A stretch of DNA of 64,000 nucleotides, taken from assembly GCF_013315695.1 (NCBI RefSeq), contig NZ_CP054353.1; one strand, written 5' to 3'. Position 1 is the stretch's first letter. The number at the start of each line of letters is the position of its first letter. This DNA comes from Escherichia coli (GTDB taxonomy: Bacteria > Pseudomonadota > Gammaproteobacteria > Enterobacterales > Enterobacteriaceae). A program made the translations under genes and the position numbers. The notes under the pieces were generated by a model, which was given only the letters and a program-made list of their open reading frames with translations, was not told the DNA's origin and ran no database searches. Shown in pieces: positions 1,753 through 50,062 of the stretch.

Positions 1753-1857
1753 TTCGGGCACTAATCTGAAAAGTTTGCCCACTGCTTTTTTTCCCCATCC
1801 TCTGCGCAATAATGCCCGGCGAAATATCTCCTCTCCGTTCTGTAAAAGGATTTATAC

Positions 1858-3051
1858 ATGAAGAAAATTGTTCTGCCGGTTGCTCTGGCCCTGATGGGTA
1901 TAAATGCGGACGTTTATGCGGCCGATGTAAAGATCGATATTTTAAGTGCAACAGTGAAAGATAAACGCATTGAGGGGGCATCGGTGACGCTGCAACGCAA
2001 TGGCGCACAATCTGTTTCTGGCACCACAAATGCCTCGGGCAGCATTAATCTGGGCTCTTCCTTTGCCGATGATCAAGATGCTTTGTTAATCGTCAAAAAA
2101 GAGGGCTATTCTAATCTGGTGGTCAAATGCCCGTGTGCGGGCATGACTTATGCGATTAGTCCGGTAATGACTAGTCTGGATGGCATGCGTGTCGTATTGA
2201 GCTGGGGCGAAAAGCCTTTTGATCTTGATTCGCATTTGATCTTCCCTGGCGGACATATTTATTTTGATAGTAAAGAGGGGACTGATGCCAATCTGGATGT
2301 TGATGATACGGATAGCTATGGACCAGAAACTGTCACTATCAGCAAAAAGCATTTTGGCGAAAGTTACATCTATGCCGTGCAGGACTATAGCAATAAAGGG
2401 TTGCCCAACAGTAATTATCTCTCTGCCAGTAAGGCAAAAGTGTTTGTTTATGTAGGGGGCTCCCTGGTGCGTAGTTATAGTGTCCCTGCTGGAAAACGAG
2501 GGAACATCTGGACCGTGTTTAAACTCAATCCAAACGGCGAGTTTGAAGATATCAACTCTGTTACCACCGCCAATTTTAACGACACCACATTAGGCGTCAG
2601 GGATTTAGCCACTGTGATAATGCCTGCGACGGGTTCTTCAACTCCGGCTTCACCTGCGATGCAAAACAGTGGATATACTCAACTGGCAAGAAAATATAAT
2701 CGTGAAGGCGAAGCTGTTTACAAAACCGGTCAACTTGAGCAAGCCATTCAACTCTTCCAACAGGCAACAGAATTAGACGGCAATTACGGTCAGGCATTTA
2801 GTAACCTGGGTCTGGCTTATCAGAAAAATGGCAACATCGCGGAAGCGATTTGGGCAAATCGTAAAGCGATCTCGTTAGCCAGTGGAGCAAATGCGGCGAC
2901 AACGCGCGCTAACTCCTATTATAACATTGCCAAAATTTATGAAACTGCAGGACAGAACGCTGATGCATTGCAGCATTATCAACTCGCTTATGCGGAAAAA
3001 AATAAGCCCTCTTATGAAGAGGCCATCGCACGGGTAAAAGCGAAAATGTAG
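1858..3051 (+). CDS. exported protein of unknown function with C-terminal TPR repeats (middle region resembles a YfaP/DUF2135-like domain)
   Basis: 397 aa; N-terminal signal peptide MKKIVLPVALALMGINADVYAA; AAGGA RBS upstream; C-terminal TPR-like repeats; absent from the K-12 sucD-cydA interval as I recall it. Confidence 0.7.
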   Translation: MKKIVLPVALALMGINADVYAADVKIDILSATVKDKRIEGASVTLQRNGAQSVSGTTNASGSINLGSSFADDQDALLIVKKEGYSNLVVKCPCAGMTYAISPVMTSLDGMRVVLSWGEKPFDLDSHLIFPGGHIYFDSKEGTDANLDVDDTDSYGPETVTISKKHFGESYIYAVQDYSNKGLPNSNYLSASKAKVFVYVGGSLVRSYSVPAGKRGNIWTVFKLNPNGEFEDINSVTTANFNDTTLGVRDLATVIMPATGSSTPASPAMQNSGYTQLARKYNREGEAVYKTGQLEQAIQLFQQATELDGNYGQAFSNLGLAYQKNGNIAEAIWANRKAISLASGANAATTRANSYYNIAKIYETAGQNADALQHYQLAYAEKNKPSYEEAIARVKAKM

Positions 3052-3428
3052 CGGTTAGCAAACAGGAGGCTATGTGGTGTTAGCCTCCTTACCCCCAGGC
3101 CAGTGGGAATATAGTAATCATCGTTTTTAACATTCAACGTCCAGATTCTGCTTGAGCGTAAAAACAAGTCTTTAGATATTTTATAAATGATGAAGGGCTG
3201 GAAAGTGGTTGATGTCACCGACTCACGATCGTTATCGCCAGCAAAGCTTTTTTGCCATTGCACCAGACGCACCTTCAACCATTTTGGCGACGAATCAACT
3301 GCTACCGCCACCAGGCTTGTTTGCCATTTTCCCGTACCTAATTCGTCGCTTGCCGCACTGTTGGCTGTAATCAATGGCCCAATGCCCAACCAGATACTTC
3401 TATATCCGATTGGGTTTTGTTAATTGCG

Positions 3429-4025
3429 TTACCCCTTAAACGTTAACCTCGGTCGAAATCTGACCGCTGGCTGAATTAATCCGGCTTCTTGTTGGGCTTC
3501 GATAACCGGACCAATATCTTTATAAGCAGCTGGCGCTTCTTCAATACGCCGTTCTTCGCGCAATGTGACGCATTGCCACGGCAACGTTGACTCTGCAGTC
3601 GCGCGTGAGCGCATGGCCTGCCGACGCTGGCTGCGTCCTGCTCCGTGACTGCAAGACCACAGCCACTCCGGGTTGCCGCAACCAACCGCAAGCCAGGAAT
3701 AATCACCCATGGAACCGGGGATTAACGCCAGATCGCCCGCGCGTGCCGGTGTTGTGGCCACCACAGCGCCAACGGGGACGCCATTGCCGGGATGAAAATC
3801 TGGCGTCGCGCACGTCTGGCGCACATAACCTGGGTGGTCTGGTAGCTTCACTTCTGCAAAATCAAGCAGTTGTGTTACTGCTTTTTCTTCCAGCGGCAGT
3901 TCGTCCGGCAGCAGTACGCGGGCACTGGCACCTGATGGACGAGATAATGAAACAATATTGTTGGCGCGGGAAAGTTGGATCCCTTTGCGCAGAAAGGCTT
4001 TATCAAGCCTTGAAAGATGATGCAT
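3429..4025 (-). CDS. RtcB-family (RNA 3'-phosphate ligase) C-terminal domain protein; probably a truncated remnant
   Basis: 198 aa containing the RtcB C-terminal hallmarks PGSMG, SHGAGR and EAPAAYKDI...RP...KG; the N-terminal metal-binding half of the family is missing. Confidence 0.55.
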   Translation of the reverse strand: MHHLSRLDKAFLRKGIQLSRANNIVSLSRPSGASARVLLPDELPLEEKAVTQLLDFAEVKLPDHPGYVRQTCATPDFHPGNGVPVGAVVATTPARAGDLALIPGSMGDYSWLAVGCGNPEWLWSCSHGAGRSQRRQAMRSRATAESTLPWQCVTLREERRIEEAPAAYKDIGPVIEAQQEAGLIQPAVRFRPRLTFKG

Positions 4026-4276
4026 AACGCTGTCCTGAAATATAGACGTTAAACAACCCCCTGTATTGCGAGGGTAATTTTGTCTTTCCGGTCAGCAGCC
4101 AGCAAAAGGGAAAGAAAACGCGCGTAGTGTATGTGGCGATAGCAAGTTTTACAAGTGGTAAATCTGGCTTATTGTTAAAGAGGAATTATCTTTTGTGAAG
4201 TCTTTTAAGGCCATGACTCATTCAATTTAACCGGACATAGATAATATATAACATAGGGTATATAAATTTATCATTG

Positions 4277-4405
4277 TATACTTGTCATAATTCAAGTTGC
4301 ATGTGCTGCATCGATGTTCGCTCACCCAGGTCACTTACTTATGTAAGTTTCTGGAAATTCATTATTTGTTCCCTTCCTGCAACTTGACTTATTTAGAGTA
4401 TATTC
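4277..4405. repeat. ERIC/IRU intergenic repeat, degenerate copy
   Basis: Contains ttcaagttgcatgtgctgc and cgctcacccaggtcacttacttatgtaag; about 80% identical to the copy at 49934-50062, which matches the ERIC1R/ERIC2 primer sequences. Confidence 0.8.
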
Positions 4406-4614
4406 ATGTATATGAATAATATTCTTGCAATAATAGCTTTAAAGTATTGCATGCGGATAACTGAGGTGAAATTCCTGTTTTAGGATTATTGTCACTTTAT
4501 TTTCCTGGTTAGACATATAGCTGACTGGTTTGTTTATTTGAATTATGATATTCATTAGTGCTACTGTTTTTTATAAAATAATTTTTGAATTGTTATTTTT
4601 TCACGGACGGCATT

Positions 4615-5520
4615 ATGCGAGGAAAAATACCTAAAACGGAACTGCTGGTGACTTTTGAGGTCGTCGCACGTCATGAAAGTTATACCAGAGCGGCAGAGGA
4701 GTTAGCGTTAACCCAAAGTGCAGTATTCAGACAAGTAAGTGCGCTGGAGGAATTTTTACATACTCCGTTATTTTCACACTCTAAAAAACGCATTTTTCTT
4801 AATGATGCAGGGAAGTATTACCTGGGGATAGTAAAAGAAACATTAAATAAGCTGGAACGCGATACCAATACCATTATGACCTGGCAGCCTACGGTTCAGG
4901 TTATTGAACTTGCCGTTAATCCTACTTTTAGTACCCACTGGTTAATCCCAAATTTACATGAATTCACAAAGTTACATCCCGATATTATTGTTAATATTCA
5001 TTCTTTAGCTAATAACGGCGACTTTCTTAATCGGGAGTACGATGCTGTCATTATGCGCGAAAATTTTTGCGCGCCCTGGGCGGAAGTAGAGTATCTCTTT
5101 GAAGAGGAGATTTTGCCGGTATGCAGCGGCAGTTTGCTTGCAATGTCCGATCAAAAACTGTCAGTGGCAGAACTGCTTACTGAGTTACCACTTCTGCATC
5201 AAAGCACCCGTATTACTGGCTGGGAAGAGTGGTTTGCTTTATCTGGCGTTAGCAGTCCGCTGGTCAATAACGGACCACGTTTCGATTTGCTTTCAATGCT
5301 GATTGCCGCCGTGCGCTCTAATCTCGGCGTGGCGCTGTTACCACGGTTCGCTATTCAACATGATTTGGATAGTGGCGATATGGTGATTCCCTGTGATGTG
5401 CCTATTCGTACCGGTAATCGTTTTATTATGACGTGGCAGGAAGAGAAGTCTGACTCACCGCACTTGCAGCAATTTCGTGAATGGTTGCTGGCGAAATCGG
5501 TCGTACCGCAGGAGATGTAA
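4615..5520 (+). CDS. LysR-family transcriptional regulator
   Basis: N-terminal HTH (ESYTRAAEELALTQSAVFRQVSALE) plus substrate-binding domain; ATG at 4615 preferred over the TTG-extended ORF at 4585. Confidence 0.85.
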   Translation: MRGKIPKTELLVTFEVVARHESYTRAAEELALTQSAVFRQVSALEEFLHTPLFSHSKKRIFLNDAGKYYLGIVKETLNKLERDTNTIMTWQPTVQVIELAVNPTFSTHWLIPNLHEFTKLHPDIIVNIHSLANNGDFLNREYDAVIMRENFCAPWAEVEYLFEEEILPVCSGSLLAMSDQKLSVAELLTELPLLHQSTRITGWEEWFALSGVSSPLVNNGPRFDLLSMLIAAVRSNLGVALLPRFAIQHDLDSGDMVIPCDVPIRTGNRFIMTWQEEKSDSPHLQQFREWLLAKSVVPQEM

Positions 5521-5523
5521 AAC

Positions 5524-5550
5524 CTGCGCCTGGCGGGATGCCAGGCGCAG
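5524..5550. terminator. bidirectional hairpin between the convergent LysR and adenosyltransferase genes
   Basis: 10-bp perfect stem ctgcgcctgg / ccaggcgcag with 7-nt loop. Confidence 0.6.
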
Positions 5551-5553
5551 TTA

Positions 5554-6156
5554 TTACCAGTCGATACCCGGCTGGGCCTGAATGCCGTTATCAAAAGCAT
5601 GTTTGACGGGGCGGATTTCGCTTACCGTATCCGCCATTTTTAATATCTGACTGTGGCAACCGCGTCCGGTGACAATGACACTTTGTTGTGCCGGGCGGTT
5701 TTGCAGAGAAGCGATCACTTCTTCGGTGTCCAGATAATGGTAAGCCAGCATATAGGTCAGCTCATCAAGCACCACTAAGTCGTAACGCTTGTCAGCCAGC
5801 ATCCGTTTGCTTTCCGACCAGACCTCTTTCGCCGCGTCGATATCCGCTTGCCGGTTCTGTGTCTCCCAGGTAAAACCGGTTCCCATAATATGAAACTCAA
5901 CCCCCAGCGGCTGGAGAAGGTTGTATTCGCCGTTGTCCCATTGCCCCTTGATGTACTGCGCAACCCCCACCGTTTTGCCATGACCCACCGCGCGCGTCAC
6001 AGTACCAAACGCGGCAGTGGATTTCCCTTTGCCGTTGCCGGTGAAAACAATCAAGATCCCTTTTTTCTCTATCGCCGCCGCGACGCGCGTATCGACCTGT
6101 TCCTTCAATTTCTGCTGGCGCTGCACATGCCGTTCAGTTGAAATTCGCGCTTCCAT
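5554..6156 (-). CDS. ATP:cob(I)alamin adenosyltransferase (CobA/BtuR family), second copy
   Basis: 200 aa; P-loop VFTGNGKGKSTAAFG; near-colinear with E. coli BtuR as recalled. Confidence 0.85.
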   Translation of the reverse strand: MEARISTERHVQRQQKLKEQVDTRVAAAIEKKGILIVFTGNGKGKSTAAFGTVTRAVGHGKTVGVAQYIKGQWDNGEYNLLQPLGVEFHIMGTGFTWETQNRQADIDAAKEVWSESKRMLADKRYDLVVLDELTYMLAYHYLDTEEVIASLQNRPAQQSVIVTGRGCHSQILKMADTVSEIRPVKHAFDNGIQAQPGIDW

Positions 6157-6165
6157 TCATTTTCC

Positions 6166-7818
6166 TTAATGTCCCGCAGGGCAACTGGCGCAGCGGTGTT
6201 TCTGCTCAAACTGACTAAAGAAATTATTGCCTTTATCATCTACCAGGATGAATGCGGGTAAATTTTCCACTTCCATCATCCACACCGCTTCCATACCCAG
6301 CTCCGGGTATTCCAGGCAACGCAGACTTTTGACATATTCTTGCGCCAGTAACGCAGCTGCACCGCCAATACTTCCCAGATTGAAGCCGCCATGTTTGTGA
6401 CAGGCATCGGTGACCTGCTGGCTGCGGTTACCTTTCGATAACATCACCAGACTGCCGCCAGCCGCCTGGAAGGTATCGACATAACCGTCCATTCGACCGC
6501 CCGTGGTTGGACCCAGTGAACCGCAGGCCATGTTCTCCGGTGTTTTCGCCGGGCCAGCGTAATAGACAATATGATGCTTCAGGTAATCCGGCATCGGTTC
6601 GCCGCTATCCAGCCGCGCTTTTATTTTGGCGTGGGCGATATCGCGCGCCACTACGATGGGACCACTTAACGACACGCGGGTGCCTACCGGTAATCTGGCG
6701 AGATCCTGCATCACGTCACGCAACGGACGATTTAGATCCAGCTGTACATGTTGCGCGTGATTTTCTTCCCGCAGTGAGGCTGGAATATATTGCCCCGGAT
6801 TGTGTTCGAGTTTTTCCAGCCAGATACCGTGCTTGTTAATTTTTGCTTTGATATTGCGATCCGCAGAACAGGAGAGCGTCATAGCTATCGGGCAAGAGCC
6901 ACCGTGACGCGGCAGACGAATGACGCGAATATCATGAGCGAAATATTTACCCCCAAATTGCGCACCAATACCAAATTGCTGACTGGCCTCGAGCAATACT
7001 TTTTCCAGCTCAATATCACGGAATGCTTGTCCTTGCTCGTTTCCGCTGGTGGGCAAATTGTCGTAATATTTCGTTGAGGCCAGCTTGGCAACTTTTAAGG
7101 TTTGATCGGCTGAAAGCCCTCCGACGACAAAGGCGATGTGGTAAGGCGGGCAGGCAGCGGTGCCCAGCGATTTCATTTTTTCGATTAAAAATGCGGTCAG
7201 TTTTTCTGGTTGCAATAGGGATTGGGTTTCCTGATAAAGCGCGGCTTTATTGGCAGAGCCGCCCCCTTTATTAATACAGAGAAAATGGTACTCATCACCA
7301 GCGACGGCGCTGATATCAATCTGCGCCGGGAGATTGGTTTGCGTATTGACTTCGGTAAACATATCCAGTGGCGCATTTTGTGAAAAGCGCAGATTATTTT
7401 CCTGAAAAGTGGTGTAAATGCCTTTGCTTAAGGCTTCAGCGTCGTTACCTCCGGTCCATATCTGTTGCCCTTTACTGGCAACAATAGTTGCGGTGCCGGT
7501 ATCCTGACAGTTGGGTAATACCCCTTTTGCTGAGACTTCAGCATTACGTAATAACTGCAACGCAACGTATTTATCATTACTACTGGCGTGCGGATCGTTA
7601 AGAATGCTGGCGACCTGTTGCAAATGAGCGGAACGTAAGAAAAAAGAGGCTTCATAAAATGCCTGCCGGGCAAGCAGCGTTAATGCTTCAGGAGCGATTT
7701 TTATCACTTCTTCGCCGTCTAATTCCGTTACTGTAATATGTTGATCGCTAATTAATGTATATTCTGTACCGTCTTTATTTTGTAGAAACGGTTCTTGCCA
7801 GATAAATGGTTTGGACAT
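6166..7818 (-). CDS. fumD: class I (Fe-S) fumarate hydratase family; probable mesaconase/fumarase FumD
   Basis: 550 aa, FumA/FumB-like length and N-terminus ([11 protein letters not shown]...); lies in the methylaspartate operon. Confidence 0.8.
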
Positions 7819-7925
7819 ATTTCACTTTTCACCTTAAACGTTAGTTTTACTTAATTGCCGTCTAACTTCATGATCCGGCTTATAAAAATGCGTAGTCATT
7901 GGCTTCTGATTGCTTAAGATCCCCC

Positions 7926-9206
7926 TCAGGGCAGAGCAACGTTCGATTCATTGGGTTTTAATGCTTTACCCCGACAGCCCTCGCCGAAATGTTCGCCTTC
8001 CCACCGACTCACCATCGCAGCGCCCATTGCGTTGCTCATGACGTTTGTCGCGGAACGCCCCATATCAAGGAACGGATCAACGCCCATCAGCAAGATCAGC
8101 CCCGCTTCCGGAATATTGAACTGGTTGAGCGTGGCGGCGATAACCACCATTGAGGCGCGTGGTACGCCAGCCATTCCTTTCGAGGTCAACATCAGGATCA
8201 ACAGCATGGTGATTTGCTCACCGATGGATAAATGGATATTGCAGGCCTGGGCGATGAAAACTGTGGCGAAGGAGCAGTAGGCCATTGATCCAACGAGATT
8301 AAATGAGTAGCCAATGGGTAAGACAAAGCTGGCAATTTTGGGGGAAACGCCAAATTGCTCCAGTTTTTCAAGCGTTCCCGGAAAAGCCGCTTCAGAACTG
8401 GATGTGGTAAATGCCAGCAGGGCGGGTTCCGAAAGGGCACGGGTCAGGCGTCTGATGCAGGGGCCGACATAAACGATGGCCAGACCGATAAGCAGCACCC
8501 AAAGTAACAACATGGTGAAATAAAATTCACCCATAAAGATCCCGGCGCTCACCATAACTGCCAGTCCTCGTTCAGCAATCAATGCTGAAATAGCGGCGAA
8601 TACGGTCAGGGGAGCGAAGAGCATGACGTAGCCAGTGAGCTTTAACATGGCATGTGCCAGCGAATCTAAGGCGTGAACGATGGCGCTGCCTTTCTCACCA
8701 ATCGCCGTCAGGCTACAGCCGAGGAAAATTGAGAACACCACGATTTGCAAAATTTCATTGTGCGCCATGGCATCGACAATGCTGGTGGGGAAAGCATGCG
8801 AAATAAATACTTTTAGTGTAAAGGGTTCTGACGCGACCACTCCGGTGGTTTCGGCACCGTGTGCAACAAAATTAATTCCTGTGCCTGGCATGAAGAAATT
8901 TACCGTTATCAAGCCTAAGGCAATTGACAGCAATGAGGCGCAAATAAATAAAAAGAGTGTTTTAGAAAAAATACGACCAAGGGCTTTGGCATCTCCCATT
9001 TTAGCTATACCTACCACCAGGGTAGAGACCACTAACGGAGCGATAATCATTTTTATCAGTCGTAAGAAAATCGTCGTGAATATCGATATTTCTTGCGCAT
9101 AGAGTTTTGCGGTTTCCGGTGAAGCAGTGTTATTGAGCACTACGCCGATAATCATTCCAAGTACCAGCGCCAAAAGAATCATCGTGGTTAAACTTATTTT
9201 CTTCAT
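7926..9206 (-). CDS. DctA-like dicarboxylate/amino acid:cation symporter (DAACS family)
   Basis: Polytopic membrane protein of DctA-like length; start moved to the ATG at 9206, which is preceded by GGAGGA. Confidence 0.8.
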   Translation of the reverse strand: MKKISLTTMILLALVLGMIIGVVLNNTASPETAKLYAQEISIFTTIFLRLIKMIIAPLVVSTLVVGIAKMGDAKALGRIFSKTLFLFICASLLSIALGLITVNFFMPGTGINFVAHGAETTGVVASEPFTLKVFISHAFPTSIVDAMAHNEILQIVVFSIFLGCSLTAIGEKGSAIVHALDSLAHAMLKLTGYVMLFAPLTVFAAISALIAERGLAVMVSAGIFMGEFYFTMLLLWVLLIGLAIVYVGPCIRRLTRALSEPALLAFTTSSSEAAFPGTLEKLEQFGVSPKIASFVLPIGYSFNLVGSMAYCSFATVFIAQACNIHLSIGEQITMLLILMLTSKGMAGVPRASMVVIAATLNQFNIPEAGLILLMGVDPFLDMGRSATNVMSNAMGAAMVSRWEGEHFGEGCRGKALKPNESNVALP

Positions 9207-9251
9207 TTTTTCCTCCATCAGGTGCACGGCGATAAATCAGAATCAGGAGAA

Positions 9252-9283
9252 GTAGATGCCTGAATAGAGATTCAGGCATCTAC
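9252..9283 (-). other. intercistronic stem-loop (14-bp perfect stem, 4-nt loop) inside the operon
   Basis: gtagatgcctgaat agag attcaggcatctac; no U-run follows on the transcribed strand. Confidence 0.5.
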
Positions 9284-9366
9284 CTGCTATTACAACCTTA
9301 CAAATAGCTGAAGTGTTGAACTGCAATAAGTGACGGGATGTCAGTTGGCTAAAAGTATTCGGATTT

Positions 9367-9684
9367 TTACAAATCGAAACTCATATTTAATAAAGGTGCA
9401 TGTTGCTGTGCACCATAGACATCATTGTCACCTACATTCCCGGAGATAATATCTCGTGGCATGACGATTTTTACTGCGTTAGAAGGATCAAACCAGACAA
9501 TACGGTGAATAAAGTCAGGTTCAACATGATATAAGCGCGCAATCAGTTCTGGGGTTAATTGCCCTGATGATTTAACTCGCTCATAGTTTTCTTTCGTTTT
9601 AAATAAAATATCTAAAACCAGTTCGTAAGGTCCGGCATTTTTCGAACGAATGACTTGCGCCAGTGAGACAATTGACTGTTTCAT
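9367..9684 (-). CDS. small protein of unknown function (DUF4387/AtuB-like by recollection)
   Basis: 105 aa ORF whose start overlaps the stop of the upstream gene by 4 nt (translational coupling). Confidence 0.6.
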   Translation of the reverse strand: MKQSIVSLAQVIRSKNAGPYELVLDILFKTKENYERVKSSGQLTPELIARLYHVEPDFIHRIVWFDPSNAVKIVMPRDIISGNVGDNDVYGAQQHAPLLNMSFDL

Positions 9685-11051
9685 GCCTGAACTCCTTCTG
9701 GCGTCACCTGTTCAATATGGAAATCAAAACGCAGAGCGTCGTTGGCTTCAATCAGGTGATATATGGAAAATTCGTATACCGGCCCGCCCTGGATATCAGA
9801 AGGGGAGAACGGGAACGCCAGATTGCCTGCGGTAGCGATGCGGTTTTCATAGCCGTAGTGCAGCATGGTAGAGCGCACCAGCGAGCAAACGCTATTGGCA
9901 ATTTCCTGGGTCGGTGCAACTACATCAAGGACAATCCCCAGCTCATGCCCGGCAGTTTGCATCGGTTCATGGTCGCCCATCACCCCGTTTTTGCCGTACA
10001 GGTGGAAATTGATGCGAATGCTGTCATCGTCGAGCGACAGGTTACGCCAAACGCTGGTTTTGACTTCATCGATGATTTTATCGATCCCGGCGATCATGAT
10101 CGGGTCGCGCGTTCCTGCGATGGTCAGACAGCGGAAGCCCACCCGTCGCGCACCTTCCAGTTTCAGGGCATACGGCGTTTCTTCATGCTTAGAACCGCTG
10201 ACGTACACTTCGCCGTCATTGACCGCTTTAAATGTGCAGCCTTTCAGGTTCAACACGCCGCCAGGTCCAGGCAGGAAGTAGGGATCGGATTTCTCATACA
10301 GTGTGTGTGCAGCCGCTGACGTTTCGGTAAATTTACGCTTCGGATTAAATGTCTTCAGCGTAAAGCCGTTGTCATCAATGATGCCCATCGCACAGTCAGA
10401 GCCTGAGCCGGGCGTTGCGGCGATTGCCGCGCATTCAAGGATTTTCCCACAATGCAGCGCCAGACCTTCATCAAAGCCTTGCATGATCGGGAGCGCAGCA
10501 AAGCAGGCCGGGTCGTAAGCGCGCCCGCCCAGCACCACTTGCGCGCCTTCTTTCAGCGCCCGCTGGAAGGGTTCGATGCCCATTTGCGCGACGATATACG
10601 TACTTTCGTCAATCGCGTCGTGGGTTAACGGCGGGACAAAATCCAGCGCCGTGATTTTGCCGTTATCCAGCGCCTGGTGGACGATGGCTTTGTCAACGTC
10701 TGCCGGGATCAACGCCATCGAGAACGAGAGGTGCTCTTCCTGGGCAATCTCATGAATTATTTCTCGGCACCACTCCAGGTGTGGTGCGGCACCAGAACCG
10801 CCAGCTGTTCCGATCACCACCGGTATATTATTTTGCACGCCTGCGGTGATCATATAGCGCAGATCGCGCTTGACCCCTGCGCGATCGGTAAACGGTTTGC
10901 CTGCCCCGAGGTAGTGGGGGCCTGGATCGGAAGAGCCTGCATCAACGGCGATCAGATCGGGCGATTCTGCCATCGCTTTGCGGAAGCTCTCTTCCGGGAA
11001 TCCATACCCGAGGATTGCCGTTGGCGATAAGACTTTAAAAGAACGAGCCAT
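9681..11051 (-). CDS. DUF1446 (AtuA-like) family protein, function unknown
   Basis: 456 aa; family assignment is from memory of the N-terminal region and is unverified. Confidence 0.6.
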   Translation of the reverse strand: MARSFKVLSPTAILGYGFPEESFRKAMAESPDLIAVDAGSSDPGPHYLGAGKPFTDRAGVKRDLRYMITAGVQNNIPVVIGTAGGSGAAPHLEWCREIIHEIAQEEHLSFSMALIPADVDKAIVHQALDNGKITALDFVPPLTHDAIDESTYIVAQMGIEPFQRALKEGAQVVLGGRAYDPACFAALPIMQGFDEGLALHCGKILECAAIAATPGSGSDCAMGIIDDNGFTLKTFNPKRKFTETSAAAHTLYEKSDPYFLPGPGGVLNLKGCTFKAVNDGEVYVSGSKHEETPYALKLEGARRVGFRCLTIAGTRDPIMIAGIDKIIDEVKTSVWRNLSLDDDSIRINFHLYGKNGVMGDHEPMQTAGHELGIVLDVVAPTQEIANSVCSLVRSTMLHYGYENRIATAGNLAFPFSPSDIQGGPVYEFSIYHLIEANDALRFDFHIEQVTPEGVQA

Positions 11052-11054
11052 TTG

Positions 11055-12296
11055 TTAATCCTTAGCCTGCAACAGCGCGATAGTACGATTCATTTCGTTG
11101 AAGACGATATCGAGGCCTTCGTCAAAGCCCATCCCTGGCTTTACCAGCATACGCATAGGGCGAGCGGCAAGGGCGACGTGGACACAGGTGCGGGCACTGA
11201 CATCAGTTTCATTGCAGGTGCCGCCCTGGTACGCTTCCATGCTGTGGCTGTTGCAGTAAAGAACCGCATCGACGATGTTGTGAATACTGCCCAGATCCGG
11301 GGTTTTGATTTGCACCATGTGACAACTGGCGGCATCAGTGAAATCAACAATATCCTGGTAGGTGTTACACCATTCATCGGCCACAATTTTCACGCCGGAA
11401 CCGAGGCGCGTCAGCTCTTTGGTAATCGCGGTCAGCAGGCGAATTTGATCGGGCTTGTTACCGGCATCGACCGGCCCTTCAATGTAGAGCGGCAGGCCTT
11501 GCGCTTCTTTTTCCAGGCTGGCGATGTATTGCGCACAGCGAAGCGGATCCATATCGAAGATCAGGCCGATAGTGCCGTATACATCGATGTGCAGGGTTGG
11601 GTGGTAGCGTGCGCTGGTGCGCTTGCTCAGAATACGATCCGACAGCCAGCGGACATATTCGCGCAGTTTTTCACCTTTAAAGCCCAGTTTCTCTTCGACG
11701 TTATTAATCAGTGCATGGGGCAGCACGTCGATGCCCTTAAGGATCATCTTATCGACGGCGATATATCGATCGTCCCCGCTCTGACCAAATAATGGAATGG
11801 ATTCCGCCACGCGTGGCAACTGCCATTCATCACAGACCACTTCAGTTTTCAGACGGCCGGTTGCCAGCGCGGTAGCATCAAGCAGCGCCTGTGATAATCC
11901 GTAGCGCACGGCGGTATGCAGCAAGTTGCCGTCAATACGCAATTTGTCGAAGAAACGGGCATTCGGCAGGAAAGCATCCACATCGCGGCCTATCAGTAAT
12001 GGCTTGATATGGTCGTTGAGGAACGGAATAAAGTGCTCAGCGAGGAACAGTGGATCGCGACCACCTGCCCCGGAATACTGTACGGCAGCACAGTCACCTA
12101 CGGCGACCGCGCCGTTTTCCAGAATCAACTGTACCGATACGCACTCCCCGGCCTGACGAACGGCGTTAAACCCCTGTGTTACCGGCTCCCCGGTATAAAA
12201 AAAGCCGTCATGACCCGCTCCGTTTTTTATCGCCTGCTGGTCATCGAAATAGAATGAGGAGTAGCCAGCAGTGAACAGAGCCTGTTTTATTTTCAT
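11055..12296 (-). CDS. mal: methylaspartate ammonia-lyase (beta-methylaspartase)
   Basis: 413 aa; N-terminus MKIKQALFTAGYSSFYFDDQQAIKNGAGHDGF matches clostridial MAL. Confidence 0.9.
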   Translation of the reverse strand: MKIKQALFTAGYSSFYFDDQQAIKNGAGHDGFFYTGEPVTQGFNAVRQAGECVSVQLILENGAVAVGDCAAVQYSGAGGRDPLFLAEHFIPFLNDHIKPLLIGRDVDAFLPNARFFDKLRIDGNLLHTAVRYGLSQALLDATALATGRLKTEVVCDEWQLPRVAESIPLFGQSGDDRYIAVDKMILKGIDVLPHALINNVEEKLGFKGEKLREYVRWLSDRILSKRTSARYHPTLHIDVYGTIGLIFDMDPLRCAQYIASLEKEAQGLPLYIEGPVDAGNKPDQIRLLTAITKELTRLGSGVKIVADEWCNTYQDIVDFTDAASCHMVQIKTPDLGSIHNIVDAVLYCNSHSMEAYQGGTCNETDVSARTCVHVALAARPMRMLVKPGMGFDEGLDIVFNEMNRTIALLQAKD

Positions 12297-13741
12297 TATG
12301 GTCTTCCTATTAATTTACTGTGGGATACAGCATTGATGTCATCTACAACCATCTGGAATGTCGGTTGGCGTCCTTCAAAGCGTGCGCGTTCCGCAACGTA
12401 ATCGTGGTGGAGGTCGAGAATATCTTTTGGCAATGGAACGGCTCCGGCTTCCAGTACGCGTATCGCGCCGGTGTTGTCACGGACCGGAAGAATTTTGCCC
12501 GCGTTGCAGGCGGCTGGCGCAAACGGCACATCCAGTACGCCCGCTTCAAATGCCAGCACCGTACCGCGCGCAATATCACCATTACCCAGTTCGAACACTT
12601 TATTCAGTACCGCGTGAACCTCGCTCTTAATCAGTTCAATTTCCAGTTCAACCGCAGGGCACGGCGGGAATTTCTGCTCGTTGACCATGTTGAGCATCTG
12701 GCGGGAGGCTTTCAGCCCCTGAATGTTGGCAGCGGCAGTCGGGATGCCCCAGGCTTCGTGCGGACTTTTGGTGATGACTTTGGTGGCACCAGACATCCCC
12801 GCGACGGCTGCGCCCCAGGAGATAATAGCGAACGCTTTCGATTCGTCTTCCGGAAAGCCGCCCATCCACTGGTGAAACACGGTACTTAATTCATAGTCGG
12901 TATAGCCATAGCTCTGAAAATATTCGTGTGCAAGTTCACGCAGAGACTGGATCGCCGCAACATCCTGCGTCAGGCTGCCGACCTGTCCATAACCAACGGT
13001 GATAGATTTCACACCCTGTTCCAGCGCCAGTAATCCTTCGATTATCGCGATAGAGTGCGAGATAAACGGCGGGATCAGGGTACCCGTTAGTGGGCCAAAC
13101 GGTTCGCGGTTGATGCGGATCCCGTGTTCTTCATACATCCCCATTAAACGGTCGCAGTACTGCCAGTCGCGGATCGATTTTTCCAGCGTTACGCGCTTGG
13201 CATACGGAATGTTGTAGGAAATGCCGCCGCCTTCATAACTGGTAAAGCCGCTGGCCATCGAGATTTCAGCCAGCAGACGCGCATCTGGCGTGCCGTGGCG
13301 GATCTGTAGCGGTTTTTGCAAAGTTTCGGTGAGGCGACGGCAAGCTGCGACGCCGTGGTTAACGACCGGTAAACCGTTCAGTTTAGAGGTTCCGGCTTCG
13401 ATGGATTTTTTAATCCCTACAGCCGCTTCTTCGTACCGATTCAGACGGGTATATGCGTCGATGGTGCTCGGCAGCAGATCGCATTCTTCTTGTAGTGTTT
13501 TCAGTAGTTCGATGTGTTCGTCCATCAGCGCCACGCCTGCGCGCGGTTGGCTAAGAGTTTTACCTTCCTTGTCTGCTTTCAGCAGGGCAAGAGAGAAGCG
13601 TTTATGCTCAGGAATGGTTTGTTGGTATTTAACGCCATCTTCAAAGTTTTCAACATCCTTGCCGGTTTCCCAGGTTTTCAGTACCTGTTGCCGCTCGGTC
13701 ATGAATTCGTCATGGGTTAATTTCTTATTTCGAAGTTCCAT
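12296..13741 (-). CDS. glmE: glutamate mutase epsilon (E) subunit
   Basis: 481 aa; N-terminus MELRNKKLTHDEFMTERQQVLKTW resembles clostridial GlmE/MutE. Confidence 0.88.
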   Translation of the reverse strand: MELRNKKLTHDEFMTERQQVLKTWETGKDVENFEDGVKYQQTIPEHKRFSLALLKADKEGKTLSQPRAGVALMDEHIELLKTLQEECDLLPSTIDAYTRLNRYEEAAVGIKKSIEAGTSKLNGLPVVNHGVAACRRLTETLQKPLQIRHGTPDARLLAEISMASGFTSYEGGGISYNIPYAKRVTLEKSIRDWQYCDRLMGMYEEHGIRINREPFGPLTGTLIPPFISHSIAIIEGLLALEQGVKSITVGYGQVGSLTQDVAAIQSLRELAHEYFQSYGYTDYELSTVFHQWMGGFPEDESKAFAIISWGAAVAGMSGATKVITKSPHEAWGIPTAAANIQGLKASRQMLNMVNEQKFPPCPAVELEIELIKSEVHAVLNKVFELGNGDIARGTVLAFEAGVLDVPFAPAACNAGKILPVRDNTGAIRVLEAGAVPLPKDILDLHHDYVAERARFEGRQPTFQMVVDDINAVSHSKLIGRP

Positions 13742-13759
13742 TGATTGCAGCCTTAATTG

Positions 13760-15148
13760 TTATAGGGTTAAGCATTGAATACTGGTGCGCGCGGCGGCCA
13801 GCGGATCGACTCTGGCGACGTTTGCCAGCAGTGGTAATAGCCCCCGGGAATCGCGGTAATATTCAAATTCGGTCGGTAAGAGAATGCGTTTACCGTCGTC
13901 GTTTAACTCGCGGTATTTCAACCAGTGATGCATATCGAACTGACTGGCACGCGAGAGCCATCCGCCGGATCCGACGACTTTACGCACGGTTGTCAGGTCA
14001 CGTCCCATCTGTAAATCGACATTGCCGACGCAGGTGCAGACCTCTTTTTTGGTGCCCGCATGTCTTTCGGTGGCATAACCCACACACAGTCCGGCCAGGA
14101 CTGTATCGAAATATTTTTCTTCTGCATTCGCGGGTAAGTAGTCGGGATGAGCGACTAGATGACGGAGGTAATGATAAAAAGCGTCCAGCTGTGCGGGTTG
14201 CTGAGCAAAATTCACATTGACTAACTCTTTCGCACTTTCACCAACCACCATTGCCGAGACGCGCATTCCCAGATCGCCTTCCACCGTCCGTTTCACGAAG
14301 GGTTCCGGTACGCCGTGTAAAACGGTGTCGGGCGAGAGCGTGTTGGCACAGGCGGAATAGACATCGGTGGTTGCGCCACCCATGTCGATCAGTATGAACT
14401 CTTTCCAGCTGTGATCGACATTACTGATTGCCTTAACCAGTTCAAAGACTGTCCACGGTGTCGGCATTGGTTCTTCGCCTGTTTTATCAACAACGACATC
14501 CAGCCCTTTCCCTTTAACGATGCGTTTAAGGAATATGTCGCAGATAGCCTGGCGTGCAGCTAAAGGGTTCGGATGGTCAAGATCGGGCAGAACGTTGTCG
14601 ACGATGGTCAGGTCTTTATGCCCTAGGATCTCCTGCACCTCGTCCTGAATATCCCGGTTTCCGGCATAAATAATGGCGCAGTCGAGTTTGGATTCTGCCA
14701 GCACACGGGCGTTATTCAGGCCGTAGCTTTCTTCTCCGCCGTCGGTGCCGCCGGTGAACAAGAGAATATCGGGCTGCGTTTCTTCCAGTGCCTGGATATC
14801 ACGGCGGTTCAGCTTGTAGGAGTAATATTGCGCAATTTTAGCCCCCGCAGAGTGAGCGGTTACTTTCGCGGTTTCCAGGGTGATAGAAGGCACCAATCCC
14901 ATTGCGGCAACCGCCAGCCCACCTTTGGCAGAGGAGGAATACTTCAATGCAACCTCACCGTTGTTAAACAGGGGGAGGGTATTATCTACGTTTAACACCA
15001 GGTTCAGGCTGGAGAAAAACCCCTTCGCCAGATGATGGGTGGTGGTTGGGGTCAGTACGTGGTTAACCAACGTTAACGCGTCCCCCTCCCGGGCGAAGAG
15101 GGCTGCTTTGGTCCACGTCGATCCAATATCGACAGAGACGATTTGCAT
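13760..15148 (-). CDS. glmL: glutamate mutase L component (MutL/GlmL)
   Basis: 462 aa, the size of clostridial GlmL; sits between the S and E subunit genes. Confidence 0.8.
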   Translation of the reverse strand: MQIVSVDIGSTWTKAALFAREGDALTLVNHVLTPTTTHHLAKGFFSSLNLVLNVDNTLPLFNNGEVALKYSSSAKGGLAVAAMGLVPSITLETAKVTAHSAGAKIAQYYSYKLNRRDIQALEETQPDILLFTGGTDGGEESYGLNNARVLAESKLDCAIIYAGNRDIQDEVQEILGHKDLTIVDNVLPDLDHPNPLAARQAICDIFLKRIVKGKGLDVVVDKTGEEPMPTPWTVFELVKAISNVDHSWKEFILIDMGGATTDVYSACANTLSPDTVLHGVPEPFVKRTVEGDLGMRVSAMVVGESAKELVNVNFAQQPAQLDAFYHYLRHLVAHPDYLPANAEEKYFDTVLAGLCVGYATERHAGTKKEVCTCVGNVDLQMGRDLTTVRKVVGSGGWLSRASQFDMHHWLKYRELNDDGKRILLPTEFEYYRDSRGLLPLLANVARVDPLAAARTSIQCLTL

Positions 15149-15597
15149 CAGATTGCCTCTTCAAGAATACGAGTATCAACGTCATGACGTTGGTTGATAT
15201 CGTGTGCCATCAGCTGACAAACATCTTCTAAGTCATGACTTGGGGCAAAGACGCGATCAAATCCCATCTCTTTGAATTTGGTTTCCACGTCAGCGAAGTC
15301 ATGTTTTCCGACCACCAGGTTACCGCCCACATAGAGCAGGATGTCCCCCAGTCCACGCTCGATGCAGCGTTCGCGCATGCCCAGACAGTCGATATCGCCA
15401 TGCCCATAGATAGAGGAGACGACAATCGCGTCAGCGCCAGTTTCAATGGCCGCATCAATATATTCGTCCTGGCTGACCATTACGCCCAGATTAATGACTC
15501 TGAAGCCATGGTTGCTAAAAACGCGGTCCAGAACTTTATTGCCTACTGCATGGCAGTCCGCGCCAATAACGCCAATCACAAGTGTTGCTTTCTTCAT
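15148..15597 (-). CDS. glmS: glutamate mutase sigma (S) subunit, cobalamin-binding
   Basis: B12-binding domain; start taken at MKKATLV (15597), preceded by AAGGA, rather than the longer ORF from 15660. Confidence 0.85.
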
Positions 15598-16143
15598 GGG
15601 TAATCCTTTGTAAGACAGAGAGTAAAATAAGTTACACACGTCGTATTTATGGCCGTTCATAACGGCACAGGTTTAATATCACAGGAGTGTCTTTATCTGA
15701 CCGTAATGTTGCAATTGATCTATTTTCAAAATGTCTTTCGGGAAATGATTGTTTAAAGTATGTTGTTAAATTCTCATGTTAATTCAGTGTGTTATGTCAA
15801 CTAATGTCATGAATGTTAAATTTTTAAAATTAACTTGATTTGGTGTATTGAGGTATTTGTGATCTACTTCTAATTTGCATTTTAGTGATATGGGTTTAGC
15901 CATGAGTAAATGCATTTCATAAAATTTAAGTCGAATTTCACTGCAATTCATCTCTGCTTAATGTAAAAATAATGTTGAAAATAACAAATGGTTAATGATT
16001 CATGCGAATTATGACCTTAGTTAGCTCTTTTGATTTTTCGTAAAAAAGAGAGGTACATGAAGGTGCTACCAGTATGAGTAACGTTAATCAAAGGTTTTAT
16101 TACGTCTGGCAATAACGCAGGCCATTTTCGCGACTGGGTGGAT

Positions 16144-16566
16144 TTAATCAGTATAATCCTCATACAATAGTTCACGATTAACTGAACCGTTAACGGGGAT
16201 TTGGTGTTGAAATTTAGAAATGGCGGAGTCAATTAATGAAGACAATATCGAAAAAATGACAGTGTCAGAATTAATTTCAATTAATCCTTCTCGTTGTTGA
16301 CCAAAAAAGATATTTATCTTGATTTCATTTGTACTACGGCAATCAATATGTAGTAATTTTTGATCGCTGAGATTTTCTGTTTCATAAATGTTTTTGGCGA
16401 TAGTCGGATGTATTGATGCCAGACATCTGCTCAGATAAGCCAGATCCTTTAGGGAACACCCCGCTGAGTAGAGGATGTCAGAGAATTTTTGTGTGTTAAC
16501 TGTTGTCTCTGAAGCGTATGTTGCATTGACAGGAAGGGTGTTGAAAGAGATTTGAGATGGGAGCAT
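16144..16566 (-). CDS. hypothetical protein, no recognisable domain (AT-rich)
   Basis: 140 aa ORF, Ser/Thr/Asn-rich N-terminus; same strand and 80 bp downstream of the 314-aa ORF. Confidence 0.55.
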   Translation of the reverse strand: MLPSQISFNTLPVNATYASETTVNTQKFSDILYSAGCSLKDLAYLSRCLASIHPTIAKNIYETENLSDQKLLHIDCRSTNEIKINIFFGQQREGLIEINSDTVIFSILSSLIDSAISKFQHQIPVNGSVNRELLYEDYTD

Positions 16567-16646
16567 TATTTAAATCTTTCCGTGAGTAATAAAAATTAAT
16601 CCCCGGGCATTGTTTAGCAATATTTGCCACAGGTAATATATAAAAA

Positions 16647-17591
16647 TTAAAGTATTTGATTGGCATCGGTTAACTGATCAATAACCAGTGCCAGATTGGT
16701 AAACATTTTGAAAAAGCGATACTGGCTCGGAATATCTCTTTCAAAGACGAAACATTCAATGTCATTGTTTGAAAAATAAAGGACTAGTGTTGCTGATTCG
16801 TCAGGAAAAATATGGAAATATATCTGGTTACCAGAAGGAGGATAGTCCAGAAGAAGGGTATCTTTGCCCGTCACATACCTGTTGTGGTCGTGGATGCTGC
16901 GCTCACACTTCATCAGAGGTGTCATGATACTCATGTATTCATCTGATGTTAATATATTAAAATCACCATCCATTTTAAAGAAACGATAAAGTAACAGTAC
17001 ATCCTCTTGCGTAACCGGTTCGTTTGTTTTTAGAGGGAAATAAGTGGGAACCAGAAGATGAGGTTCTAATCTATTTTGTTGAGCGCTATAACTAAATTTG
17101 AACATAAATTCCGGATCGCTCATCAATTGAGCGACATAATTATGCCTGGCTTCAAAAATTTTAACTTTTATCAGGTTAAATAAGTCTGTTTCGTCATCCT
17201 GTATTAAAAGACATTGGCCATAGCAGCCAGGCTTTTTTTCATTATAAGCAGAAACGGTTATTCTGTCAGGAGTGTCAACGTTATATCCAAAAGCCAGATA
17301 GTGACCGTCCTCATCGAGATTTGTTTCCAGGTTATTTAAATTTATCACATGAAGTGTTTGCAATGCTGATTCAATGAGCTGTTGACTCTCTGAGGTAAAT
17401 GTTTCGCGCTGCGTTGTATAAAGTGTATCGATTCCAACGACTATCCGATATGGGTCAAGGATGGCGGCAATCATCTTTATTACCTGCACAGCCACGGGTG
17501 ATGTCATTGATTCGTTATCTGTTTTTAGAGGATCATTAGATGGCCAACCTGAGAAGCGATTGACAGCCGAACCGATATTATCAGGACTCAT
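16647..17591 (-). CDS. hypothetical protein, no recognisable domain (AT-rich)
   Basis: 314 aa ORF, acidic and Phe/Tyr-rich; GAGG RBS about 9 nt upstream of the ATG. Confidence 0.6.
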   Translation of the reverse strand: MSPDNIGSAVNRFSGWPSNDPLKTDNESMTSPVAVQVIKMIAAILDPYRIVVGIDTLYTTQRETFTSESQQLIESALQTLHVINLNNLETNLDEDGHYLAFGYNVDTPDRITVSAYNEKKPGCYGQCLLIQDDETDLFNLIKVKIFEARHNYVAQLMSDPEFMFKFSYSAQQNRLEPHLLVPTYFPLKTNEPVTQEDVLLLYRFFKMDGDFNILTSDEYMSIMTPLMKCERSIHDHNRYVTGKDTLLLDYPPSGNQIYFHIFPDESATLVLYFSNNDIECFVFERDIPSQYRFFKMFTNLALVIDQLTDANQIL

Positions 17592-17949
17592 AGCAGCAAC
17601 CTCATTGTAATCAAGCGAGGCGCTGAGCGTACTCGGCTATAGAAAAACTAACTTGCAAAAATCGCTCATTTTTCATTTATCAGGCGAAAGTGGTCTCTGT
17701 TCACTCAGAAACAATCACTCCCGCTAAGTCATACCTGTTTCATCGATACACTTAAGTGATTATTACTAATGAAACAATAACATAACGGGCTTACGGCCGG
17801 TGCTCATAAAGGCAACAATCAATTAACTTTGATAAAAATATGTTATGTAAAATAGCAACAAATTGGCTAATCTAATCAATTGGTATTATAAAAAGTGGAT
17901 AAGGCGGTTCTGTTAAATAAAACACTGGTTTTTTATCTATACCTTTTCA

Positions 17950-18396
17950 TTGTAATAATTGTGTTGCATAAATATTTCACAATAAATTAACAATAAAATC
18001 ACCAATGATCTATGGTTTATACATAATTAACATATTTGGTTGGTTTTGATATAAATCAATTTTTAATTCTTGAAAAAAATCTGCAAAACACGATAAATTG
18101 TCGTAGATCAAATTGGTGAGATCGTGACAATTTCGCTATAAATTGATCACTGTCGAAAAATGCAAATTTGCTCAATAAAAACCTGTTTATTGTAAGGATT
18201 TTGCGGCGTAATATAATTACGGGATCAATTTGGTTTATTCATTAACATATTTGTAACTTTTTTATCATTGTCTTTTCCTCTTTTGATGAAATGGCAACGA
18301 TAGAGGCGAGCAAATAATTTTGTATTGGGGCATGCGTGTGACCCTTTCTAACGGGGTTCACTCTCGGAGTCTTCATGCGATGAGCAAGGAGTCATG
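17950..18396 (+). promoter_or_regulatory. cydAB promoter/regulatory region
   Basis: Long AT-rich leader upstream of cydA with a repeated ggtttat-N-attaacatatttg motif (18014-18047 and 18229-18258) and TTGAT-like half sites; exact sites not resolved. Confidence 0.45.
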
Positions 18397-19965
18397 ATGT
18401 TAGATATAGTCGAACTGTCGCGCTTACAGTTTGCCTTGACCGCGATGTACCACTTCCTTTTTGTGCCACTGACGCTCGGTATGGCGTTCCTGCTGGCCAT
18501 TATGGAAACGGTCTACGTCCTTTCCGGCAAACAGATTTATAAAGATATGACCAAGTTCTGGGGCAAGTTGTTTGGTATCAACTTCGCTCTGGGTGTGGCT
18601 ACCGGTCTGACCATGGAGTTCCAGTTCGGGACTAACTGGTCTTACTATTCCCACTATGTAGGGGATATCTTCGGTGCGCCGCTGGCAATCGAAGGTCTAA
18701 TGGCCTTCTTCCTCGAATCCACCTTTGTAGGTCTGTTCTTCTTCGGTTGGGATCGTCTGGGTAAAGTTCAGCATATGTGTGTCACCTGGCTGGTGGCGCT
18801 CGGTTCAAACCTGTCCGCACTGTGGATTCTGGTTGCGAACGGCTGGATGCAAAACCCAATCGCGTCCGATTTCAACTTTGAAACTATGCGTATGGAGATG
18901 GTGAGCTTCTCCGAGCTGGTGCTTAACCCGGTTGCTCAGGTGAAATTCGTTCACACTGTAGCGTCTGGTTATGTGACTGGCGCGATGTTCATCCTCGGTA
19001 TCAGCGCATGGTATATGCTGAAAGGTCGTGACTTCGCCTTCGCTAAACGCTCCTTTGCTATCGCTGCCAGCTTCGGTATGGCTGCCGTTCTGTCTGTTAT
19101 TGTTCTGGGTGATGAATCTGGTTACGAAATGGGCGACGTGCAGAAAACCAAACTGGCTGCTATTGAAGCCGAGTGGGAAACGCAACCTGCGCCTGCTGCC
19201 TTTACTCTGTTCGGCATTCCTGATCAGGAAGAGGAGACGAACAAATTTGCGATCCAGATCCCTTACGCGCTGGGCATCATTGCAACGCGTTCCGTGGATA
19301 CTCCAGTTATCGGCCTGAAAGAACTGATGGTGCAGCATGAAGAACGCATTCGTAACGGGATGAAGGCGTACTCTCTGCTCGAGCAACTGCGTTCTGGTTC
19401 TACCGACCAGGCGGTTCGTGACCAGTTCAATAGCATGAAGAAAGACCTCGGTTACGGTCTGCTGCTGAAACGCTATACGCCAAACGTGGCTGATGCGACT
19501 GAAGCGCAGATTCAACAGGCAACCAAAGACTCCATTCCGCGTGTAGCGCCGCTGTACTTCGCGTTCCGTATTATGGTGGCGTGTGGCTTCCTGCTGCTGG
19601 CAATCATCGCGCTCTCTTTCTGGAGTGTCATCCGCAACCGCATTGGCGAGAAAAAATGGCTGCTGCGCGCCGCGCTGTACGGTATTCCGCTGCCGTGGAT
19701 TGCTGTAGAAGCGGGCTGGTTCGTGGCTGAATATGGCCGCCAACCGTGGGCTATCGGTGAAGTGCTGCCGACAGCTGTGGCGAACTCGTCACTGACCGCA
19801 GGCGATCTCATCTTCTCAATGGTGCTGATTTGCGGCCTGTATACCCTGTTCCTGGTGGCAGAATTGTTCTTAATGTTCAAGTTTGCACGCCTCGGCCCAA
19901 GCAGCCTGAAAACCGGTCGCTATCACTTTGAGCAGTCTTCCACGACTACTCAGCCGGCACGCTAA
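18397..19965 (+). CDS. cydA: cytochrome bd-I ubiquinol oxidase subunit I
   Basis: 522 aa from [28 protein letters not shown]. Confidence 0.97.
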
Positions 19966-19980
19966 GACAGGAGTCGTCAA

Positions 19981-21120: not shown

Positions 21121-21134
21121 GTAAGGAGCTAAAA

Positions 21135-21248
21135 ATGTGGTATTTCGCATGGATTCTGGGAACGCTTCTTGCCTGTTCGTTTGGGGTAATCACCGCGCTG
21201 GCGCTTGAGCACGTCGAATCAGGCAAAGCCGGTCAAGAAGACATCTGA
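21135..21248 (+). CDS. cydX: cytochrome bd-I small subunit CydX
   Basis: 37-aa ORF MWYFAWILGTLLACSFGVITALALEHVESGKAGQEDI with AGGAG RBS; missed by the ORF track. Confidence 0.9.
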   Translation: MWYFAWILGTLLACSFGVITALALEHVESGKAGQEDI

Positions 21249-21541: not shown

Positions 21542-21564
21542 ATCAGAATTCTCTTTAAAAAATT

Positions 21565-21593
21565 ATGGGCCGCTCCAGGCCCATAAATTTTTA
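21565..21593 (+). terminator. terminator after cydABX-ybgE
   Basis: atgggcc gctcca ggcccat hairpin followed by aaattttta. Confidence 0.6.
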
Positions 21594-49933: not shown

Positions 49934-50062
49934 TATACTCGTCATACTTCAAGTTGCATGTGCTGCGTCTGCGTTCGCTCACCCCAGTCACTTACTTATG
50001 TAAGCTCCTGGGGATTCACTCGCTTGTCGCCTTCCTGCAACTCGAATTATTTAGAGTATATC
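49934..50062. repeat. ERIC/IRU intergenic repeat
   Basis: Contains atgtaagctcctggggattcac (ERIC1R) and cgctcaccccagtcacttactt (reverse complement of ERIC2). Confidence 0.9.

Follow-up and report, generated by a model that had tools for sequence, protein, structure and literature searches.

A mutation-worn ERIC repeat upstream of a LysR-family regulator in a rare sucD–cydA allele of Escherichia coli

Introduction

Does the ERIC-like sequence found in the accessory DNA between sucD and cydA of one Escherichia coli genome belong to that repeat family, and if so, how did it come to lie there, what does its state of preservation say about the age of the accessory segment, does it act on its neighbors, and does it recombine with a second copy in the same window? 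By the window we mean the whole 64-kb stretch of DNA that was analyzed. A sequence-only reading of it had proposed that the sequence is a degenerate ERIC, long resident in the accessory segment, that forms a potential substrate pair for homologous recombination with a consensus copy between ybhI and ybhJ.

ERIC elements, also named IRU or RU-1, were reportedly described by Sharples and Lloyd in 1990 and by Hulton and colleagues in 1991. They are MITE-like palindromic repeats of Enterobacterales, and reviews of the family describe elements of ~127 bp with terminal inverted repeats, target-site duplications, TA termini and a long hairpin that affect mRNA stability when co-transcribed (PMC2229807, PMC3184786, PMC10969869). 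The terminal inverted repeats measure ~7 bp, with 5'-TA-3' at both ends (PMC2229807 Table 1).

Family membership of the island copy

As an independent yardstick we used a covariance model, R1, built from 35 distinct canonical ERIC copies of 20+ species, none of them from the window. One genome per species was scanned for a 30-nt core, which gave 58 matches in Escherichia, Citrobacter, Enterobacter, Klebsiella, Dickeya, Pectobacterium, Buttiauxella, Leminorella and others; being picked by exact match to this core, the family sample is biased to well-preserved ERICs. The core pattern had 0 chance matches in 100 shuffles. In several Escherichia, Dickeya, Leminorella and Citrobacter cores a GC-rich segment (GCCGCTGCAAGCAGCGTTCAAATC... 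/ ...CTCGGCCTGAGGCCTCGCCC) takes the place of one arm; such cores resemble the longer ERIC variants with internal insertions and were left out of R1. The structure of the R1 alignment, imposed on the 35 sequences, is the predicted hairpin of the canonical copy, and covariation supports it: it is paired in 89.9% of cells, compared with 20–41% when the partners are slid; 12 pairs are changed on both sides, and 0/500 shuffles reached these values.

Run over the whole 64-kb window with filters off, R1 found exactly two elements, the next-best match having an E value of 0.79. The element in the accessory segment, which we call the island copy, is a full-length ERIC/IRU of 126 nt at 4277–4402 on the plus strand (101.9 bits, model positions 1–127), and its E value of 2e-23 is a score against a family model built only from ERICs of other genomes. 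The canonical element in the ybhI–ybhJ spacer spans 127 nt at 49934..50060, also on the plus strand, and matches model positions 1–127 with 157 bits and an E value of 1.8e-37. The alignment to the family that the sequence-only reading had suggested as a check thus gives a full-length match for both copies. An independent repeat search recovers both as well, and the sites named earlier are right, with ends that overshoot by 2–3 nt. A scan of the window at Rfam gathering thresholds gave no match at either ERIC, the canonical one included, and the silence at both copies therefore means merely that no library family reached threshold there.

The features of the family recur in the island copy one by one: besides its length and full-length similarity, it has TA at both termini (TATAC...GTATA ends), a 7-bp terminal inverted repeat (TATACTT...GAGTATA) in which 7/7 terminal pairs can form, one of them G-T, a hairpin, and an intergenic, multicopy distribution, the number of places that match the island-copy query being 2–13 per E. 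coli genome (median 7). It bears the diagnostic bases of the Escherichia subtype, and its closest relatives in the family sample are seven Escherichia ERICs at 82–84% identity, ERICs of other genera reaching at most 80%. Judged by its sequence, window 4277–4402 is a genuine ERIC (IRU / RU-1) member of the Escherichia subtype, and both the R1 match and annotation transfer bear out the proposal of a degenerate ERIC in the accessory sucD–cydA segment.

Erosion of the island copy

Aligned with the canonical copy, the island copy is identical at 107/127 positions; the resulting 84% is slightly higher than the ~80% estimated before. The differences comprise 19 substitutions and one deleted base, with 15/19 substitutions running from GC to AT, and GC content is 0.365 in the island copy, 0.465 in the canonical copy and 0.33 in the surrounding spacer. 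Mapped pair by pair on the 39-pair family structure, the island copy keeps 34/39 base pairs: in addition to the terminal 7/7, pairs can still form at 13/14 positions of the outer stem, 6/7 of the middle helix and 5/5 of the apical helix, the 5-bp hairpin CUUAC/GUAAG being unbroken. The damage is concentrated in an eroded core at 4325..4356 on the plus strand, delimited by the pair mapping and by the alignment marks of the covariance-model search, where the CCCCAG/CUGGGG helix has lost 3/6 pairs in register; the core is still recognizable though eroded. The loss of part of the central palindrome that had been read from the sequence is accordingly real in this helix, but the other helices are nearly intact.

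RNA fold prediction, which had also been proposed, places both copies well beyond shuffled sequence. The island copy folds at –35.6 kcal/mol on the plus strand (z –4.6) and –32.5 kcal/mol on the minus strand (z –4.0), and its hairpin is weaker than that of the canonical copy, for which the corresponding values are –43.2 and –52.9 kcal/mol (z –6.2 and –7.7). Three pairs of helix 3 (4310/4370, 4314/4365 and 4315/4364) are changed on both sides and still pair. We do not take these compensatory changes as evidence of selection: when substitutions of the observed spectrum were placed at random, at least three compensated pairs arose in 4.9% of placements (P ~0.05, borderline) and at least 34 retained pairs in 29% (P=0.29). 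As a borderline case, the helix-3 changes could also stem from a slight constraint on structure or from an ERIC subfamily missing from the sample. At the primer sites used for typing, the island copy has 5/22 mismatches to ERIC1R, the 3' base among them, and 2/22 to ERIC2; ERIC1R would therefore no longer prime on it, and the island copy would make no contribution to ERIC-PCR fingerprints.

The ybhI–ybhJ copy

The canonical ERIC begins 2 nt past the ybhI stop codon in a spacer whose flanking genes lie on the same strand. Its description as consensus-like is upheld: it contains the exact ERIC1R and ERIC2 primer sequences in addition to its score of 157 bits, and it is 100% identical in the E. 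albertii type strain, most of the flanks included, and an identical ERIC was also retrieved from E. coli E69. K-12 has an ERIC at the same ybhI–ybhJ site (153.8 bits) that RefSeq leaves unannotated. Conservation between E. coli and E. albertii at this site is unusually strong for a supposedly selfish repeat. The ybhI–ybhJ copy is a conserved canonical member of the family, unrelated to the island copy. The two are 45,657 bp apart in direct orientation, and the repeat search aligned them in two blocks, D5 (4277–4361 / 49934–50018, 86%) and D6 (4366–4411 / 50024–50069, 87%), that are offset by a 1-nt indel.

Genomic setting and distribution

The tested 3 kb of the window are 100% identical to E. 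coli isolate AF3 (NZ_OZ547117). According to annotation transfer and the ORF listing, the gene order at the left end is sucC, sucD, a TPR protein, a hypothetical gene, a truncated RtcB paralogue, a spacer and LysR. The truncated RtcB-family paralogue is a 198-codon N-terminal ORF on the minus strand (3429..4025) transcribed away from the ERIC, and the gene has 465 codons in strain 7/2; annotation transfer identifies the plus-strand gene at 4615..5520 as the LysR-family regulator of a methylaspartate/fumarase island. Beyond lysR the minus strand encodes cobO, a class I fumarase, a dicarboxylate symporter, DUF4387 and AtuA-like proteins, methylaspartate ammonia-lyase and glutamate mutase, and the core genes after the island are cydAB, tol-pal and the Lys/Val tRNA cluster. 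The ORF listing gives an RtcB–lysR spacer of 589 bp (4026..4614), in which the ERIC is separated by 252 bp from the truncated RtcB gene and by 212 bp from the lysR ATG, upstream of both. The RtcB-proximal 108 bp (4026..4133) are common to genomes in which the same RtcB paralogue precedes the hut operon, identity with these RtcB–hut loci stopping at 4133, and lysR alleles share sequence from 4597 on, 18 bp ahead of the ATG; genome comparison thus delimits an allele-specific, ERIC-bearing spacer of 463 bp at 4134..4596. This spacer has no significant blastn match among the other sequences compared, LysR-upstream regions included, save a 39-bp stretch in one hutH–lysR lineage.

The LysR–cobO module is present in 1,127/5,426 complete E. 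coli genomes, and the ERIC-bearing spacer in 144 of these 1,127 island-bearing genomes, ~2.7% of the 5,426. Other alleles have sucD–666 bp–lysR (O157:H7), hutH–270 bp–lysR (LWY24) or RtcB followed by the hut operon (CE10, RM14723), and R1 found no ERIC in these alternative loci of O157:H7, LWY24, CE10 and RM14723. LysR orthologues 85–89% identical occur in Salmonella enterica (there, too, beside sucD), Citrobacter, Enterobacter and two further lineages, with no ERIC upstream of the orthologues in any of these groups. In non-enterica subspecies of Salmonella enterica the LysR–cobO–fumarase module directly follows sucD.

The sucD–cydA interval (window 4026–22000) is a mosaic hot spot in which mngRAB, the RtcB paralogue, the hut (histidine utilization) operon and the LysR/methylaspartate cluster appear in varying combinations. 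At window 1760–4025 the TPR-repeat gene and a small hypothetical gene replace mngRAB and the 3' two-thirds of RtcB, an arrangement also seen in four near-identical genomes; other strains have instead mngB–RtcB (465 aa) or sucD–RtcB. Across 1,120 genomes lysR is 98–99% identical and its upstream spacer differs sharply, with breaks at 4133/4134 and 4596/4597; a near-identical lysR bordered by such breaks implies that the whole promoter region of the regulator has been swapped between lineages.

A deletion of ~8.8 kb, from 4412|4413 to ~13255, ends close to the ERIC in six complete E. coli genomes (e.g. A25, JNE112863) and in one metagenome contig. These six genomes, which add to the 144, keep just the left part of the spacer with the ERIC and have lost lysR, cobO, fumarase, the symporter, DUF4387, the AtuA-like gene, methylaspartate ammonia-lyase and part of mutase E. 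On the left the deletion begins 10 bp beyond the right end of the ERIC, within ATTCATGTATATGAAT; this short palindrome, at 4401..4418 (TATTCAT-GTAT-ATGAATA), includes the final TA of the ERIC. On the right it ends within methylaspartate mutase E, where there is no ERIC, and a 2-nt filler joins the two sides in the sequence TTCATGTATA-ca-CATCGAG.

Other features of the window

A perfect 54-nt direct repeat at 28264–28317 and 28420–28473, 156 bp apart, consists of the 3' end of the last tRNA-Lys and its terminator hairpin. Strain MSB1_4I has a P2-like prophage with an integrase at the same tRNA-Lys, and the repeat may accordingly be an att-type scar of an element that integrated or was excised. 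The Rfam gathering scan matched a CpoB/ybgF thermometer (26413–26551), an RtT RNA within the Lys/Val tRNA cluster (27485–27653) and a Moco riboswitch close to the window's right edge (63206–63350).

Origin and age of the island copy

Six alleles of the spacer allow the history of the element to be followed. Variable columns number 13/126 in the ERIC and 36/467 in the flanks (Fisher P=0.36), and the element thus varies neither more nor less than its surroundings. R1 scores differ by allele, strain 06-00048 being less derived (116.6 bits) than strain 7/2 (105.4) and the window (101.9). Most differences from the canonical ERIC are common to all six alleles and hence predate the diversification of the spacer, and the island ERIC shows ~15% AT-biased divergence compared with at most 5% between spacer alleles. 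Across 5,425 E. coli genomes the best non-orthologous ERIC match to the island copy is ~84–85% identical, a level that also holds for genomes lacking the locus, and the island copy thus has no close sister copy in this set.

We consider it very likely that the island copy is an old in-place insertion that then decayed neutrally and survives as a relic without function. On this reading the spacer ahead of lysR received an ERIC of the Escherichia type at a TA site a long time ago, and neutral, AT-biased decay of this noncoding DNA followed. In-place insertion with TA duplication implies an empty site with a single TA, of the form AAATTTATCATTG(TA)TTCATGTATATGAAT. A flank-only search for distant matches in complete E. 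coli genomes found no ERIC-less spacer, the element being present in all 144, and a candidate empty site, 'TTTATCATAA^TATCCACAGATATGAT', was rejected: MAFFT and global alignments to O157:H7, LWY24 and EC31 gave ~60–65% identity, and blastn gave no significant similarity. As for a target-site duplication, the LysR-upstream sequences of other alleles differ too much for alignment, and the ERIC is found in 144/144 spacers. Since no empty site was found, insertion within the lineage is something that we only infer.

That the segment has been resident for long, as the presence of a worn ERIC had been taken to suggest, is weakly supported for the spacer, which is old by the ~15% AT-biased divergence of its ERIC in all alleles examined; this tells nothing about the island as a whole. 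The ERIC is absent from most island-bearing genomes and from the islands of other genera, and it consequently dates one spacer allele, not the island.

Alternative explanations

To the idea that the similarity at 4277–4405 is due to chance or low complexity, with no real repeat present, the AT-rich spacer around it (GC 0.33) and the silence of the Rfam gathering scan at 4277–4405 lend some color, but the full-length E value of 2e-23 against an independent family model refutes it, the 0 core matches in 100 shuffles speak against it too, and we assign it a vanishingly small probability. The ERIC might instead have arrived from another lineage, by horizontal transfer or recombination, together with the 463-bp spacer or the RtcB module, in which case it would date the donor, not this genome. 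The spacer at 4134–4596 is sharply bounded by shared sequence, 108 bp on the RtcB side and 18 bp ahead of the lysR start codon, homologues of it are missing from the other E. coli alleles and the other species examined, and the contrast between an ERIC ~15% diverged and spacer alleles at most 5% apart fits such an import; nevertheless, the Escherichia-subtype signatures of the element and the fact that its closest relatives are Escherichia ERICs speak against it. No donor was found: the scan of species representatives contained no island-type core, and the metagenome scans, with 0 matches to the spacer and 1 to the left junction, gave one E. coli-like contig only, which is the deletion variant. 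We regard import as a possible but rather unlikely origin, and an old insertion in place remains our preferred account.

The two ERICs had also been put forward as substrates for homologous recombination, which as a working pair could yield deletions, duplications or inversions of the 45.7 kb between them. They do belong to the same repeat family on one replicon and are 84% identical over 127 nt, but their longest stretch without a mismatch measures 19 nt, less than the roughly 20–30 bp generally cited as the minimum for efficient RecA-dependent exchange in E. coli. Because the repeats are direct, the outcome of an exchange would be loss or duplication of 45.7 kb, and with a loss would go cydAB, tol-pal, the Lys/Val tRNA cluster and more. 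We built the three possible hybrid junctions from both flanks and searched for them in all complete E. coli genomes; the deletion, duplication and inversion junctions were each found in 0/5,426, and the inversions and deletions that were to be looked for in related genomes are therefore absent from this set. The sole rearrangement seen nearby is the illegitimate 8.8-kb deletion, with no ERIC at its far end. The two ERICs do not act as a recombining pair, and we hold a role in rearranging the intervening DNA to be highly improbable. A different case can be made for a working cis-acting RNA element that would modulate the stability of the lysR or RtcB-paralogue mRNA, for which the folds of the island copy (z –4.6 and –4.0 compared with shuffles), its 34/39 retained family pairs and a promoter-like site on the minus strand (4443–4416) that would read through the ERIC can be cited. 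Co-transcribed ERICs have orientation-dependent effects on mRNA stability, and in the described cases the copies are co-transcribed downstream of ORFs (PMC2229807, PMC10969869). By contrast, the island copy lies in a divergent spacer, a position that speaks against the classical 3'-UTR or intercistronic placement, and the best lysR-proximal promoter-like site (4521–4549) is downstream of it; the promoter-like count of 5, compared with 2.4 +/- 1.6 expected, is not clearly above chance, and the scan for promoters and terminators as a whole does not rise above chance. Moreover, the element evolves like its flanks (P=0.36), its pair retention is no better than chance (P=0.29), and most island-bearing genomes manage without it. 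By analogy with other ERICs such a cis-acting role would be conceivable, yet we judge it improbable, and the same improbability attaches to the more specific model of an mRNA effect like that of Yersinia ERICs, exerted via an exposed RNase E site.

Transcription and function

The consensus promoter scan returned matches on both strands, of which some would include the ERIC in a transcript and some would not. A stable transcript that includes the island ERIC is unlikely, given that the element sits between divergent genes, one of them a pseudogene, and we infer that it is now without function. At its right end a –35-like TTTAGA (4392–4397) is followed, after a 17-nt spacer, by AATAAT in the flank (4415–4420), and the two could conceivably form a hybrid sigma-70 promoter directed toward lysR, a long shot in our estimation. 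If true, the insertion would have rewired the LysR regulator, and hence the methylaspartate/glutamate-fermentation island, in the 144-genome lineage; the case would resemble the promoter-creating ends of Correia MITEs, for which no ERIC counterpart is known to have been described.

Comparison with other palindromic repeats

The island element is like an ERIC in its length (126 compared with 127 nt), TA termini, 7-bp terminal inverted repeat, long imperfect hairpin, intergenic location and multicopy nature. Unlike canonical Escherichia ERICs, it is ~16% diverged, half of its core helix is gone and its ERIC1R site is destroyed; its setting, between divergent genes instead of in a co-directional transcribed spacer, is atypical, as is its restriction to just ~2.7% of complete E. 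coli genomes. The Correia or NEMIS elements of Neisseria are MITEs that duplicate a TA and can supply promoters and RNase III sites from their ends. The island ERIC shares with them the character of a small, nonautonomous, palindromic intergenic repeat with TA termini and, with Correia elements, a promoter-like hexamer pair that straddles the element's end and its flank (4392–4420); however, the sequences are unrelated, the host clade is another, the island ERIC has no IHF site and its promoter is only predicted. Among the REP and BIME elements of E. coli, which are often cited alongside ERIC for typing, REPs are GC-rich stem-loops of ~35–40 bp, usually clustered at the 3' ends of genes and mobilized by RAYT/TnpA-REP. 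They too are intergenic, palindromic and multicopy, whereas the island element is a single 126-nt ERIC without a REP consensus.

Implications

The island element is a mutation-worn, ordinary copy of a repeat family already known for ~35 years, and as one more decayed copy of a long-described repeat it matters little in itself. The pair of copies provides a worked example of dispersed ERICs that, at 84% identity, are not rearrangement substrates, with each of three junction types found in 0/5,426 genomes. The island ERIC is also a handy marker of one rare RtcB–LysR junction allele in the sucD–cydA region.
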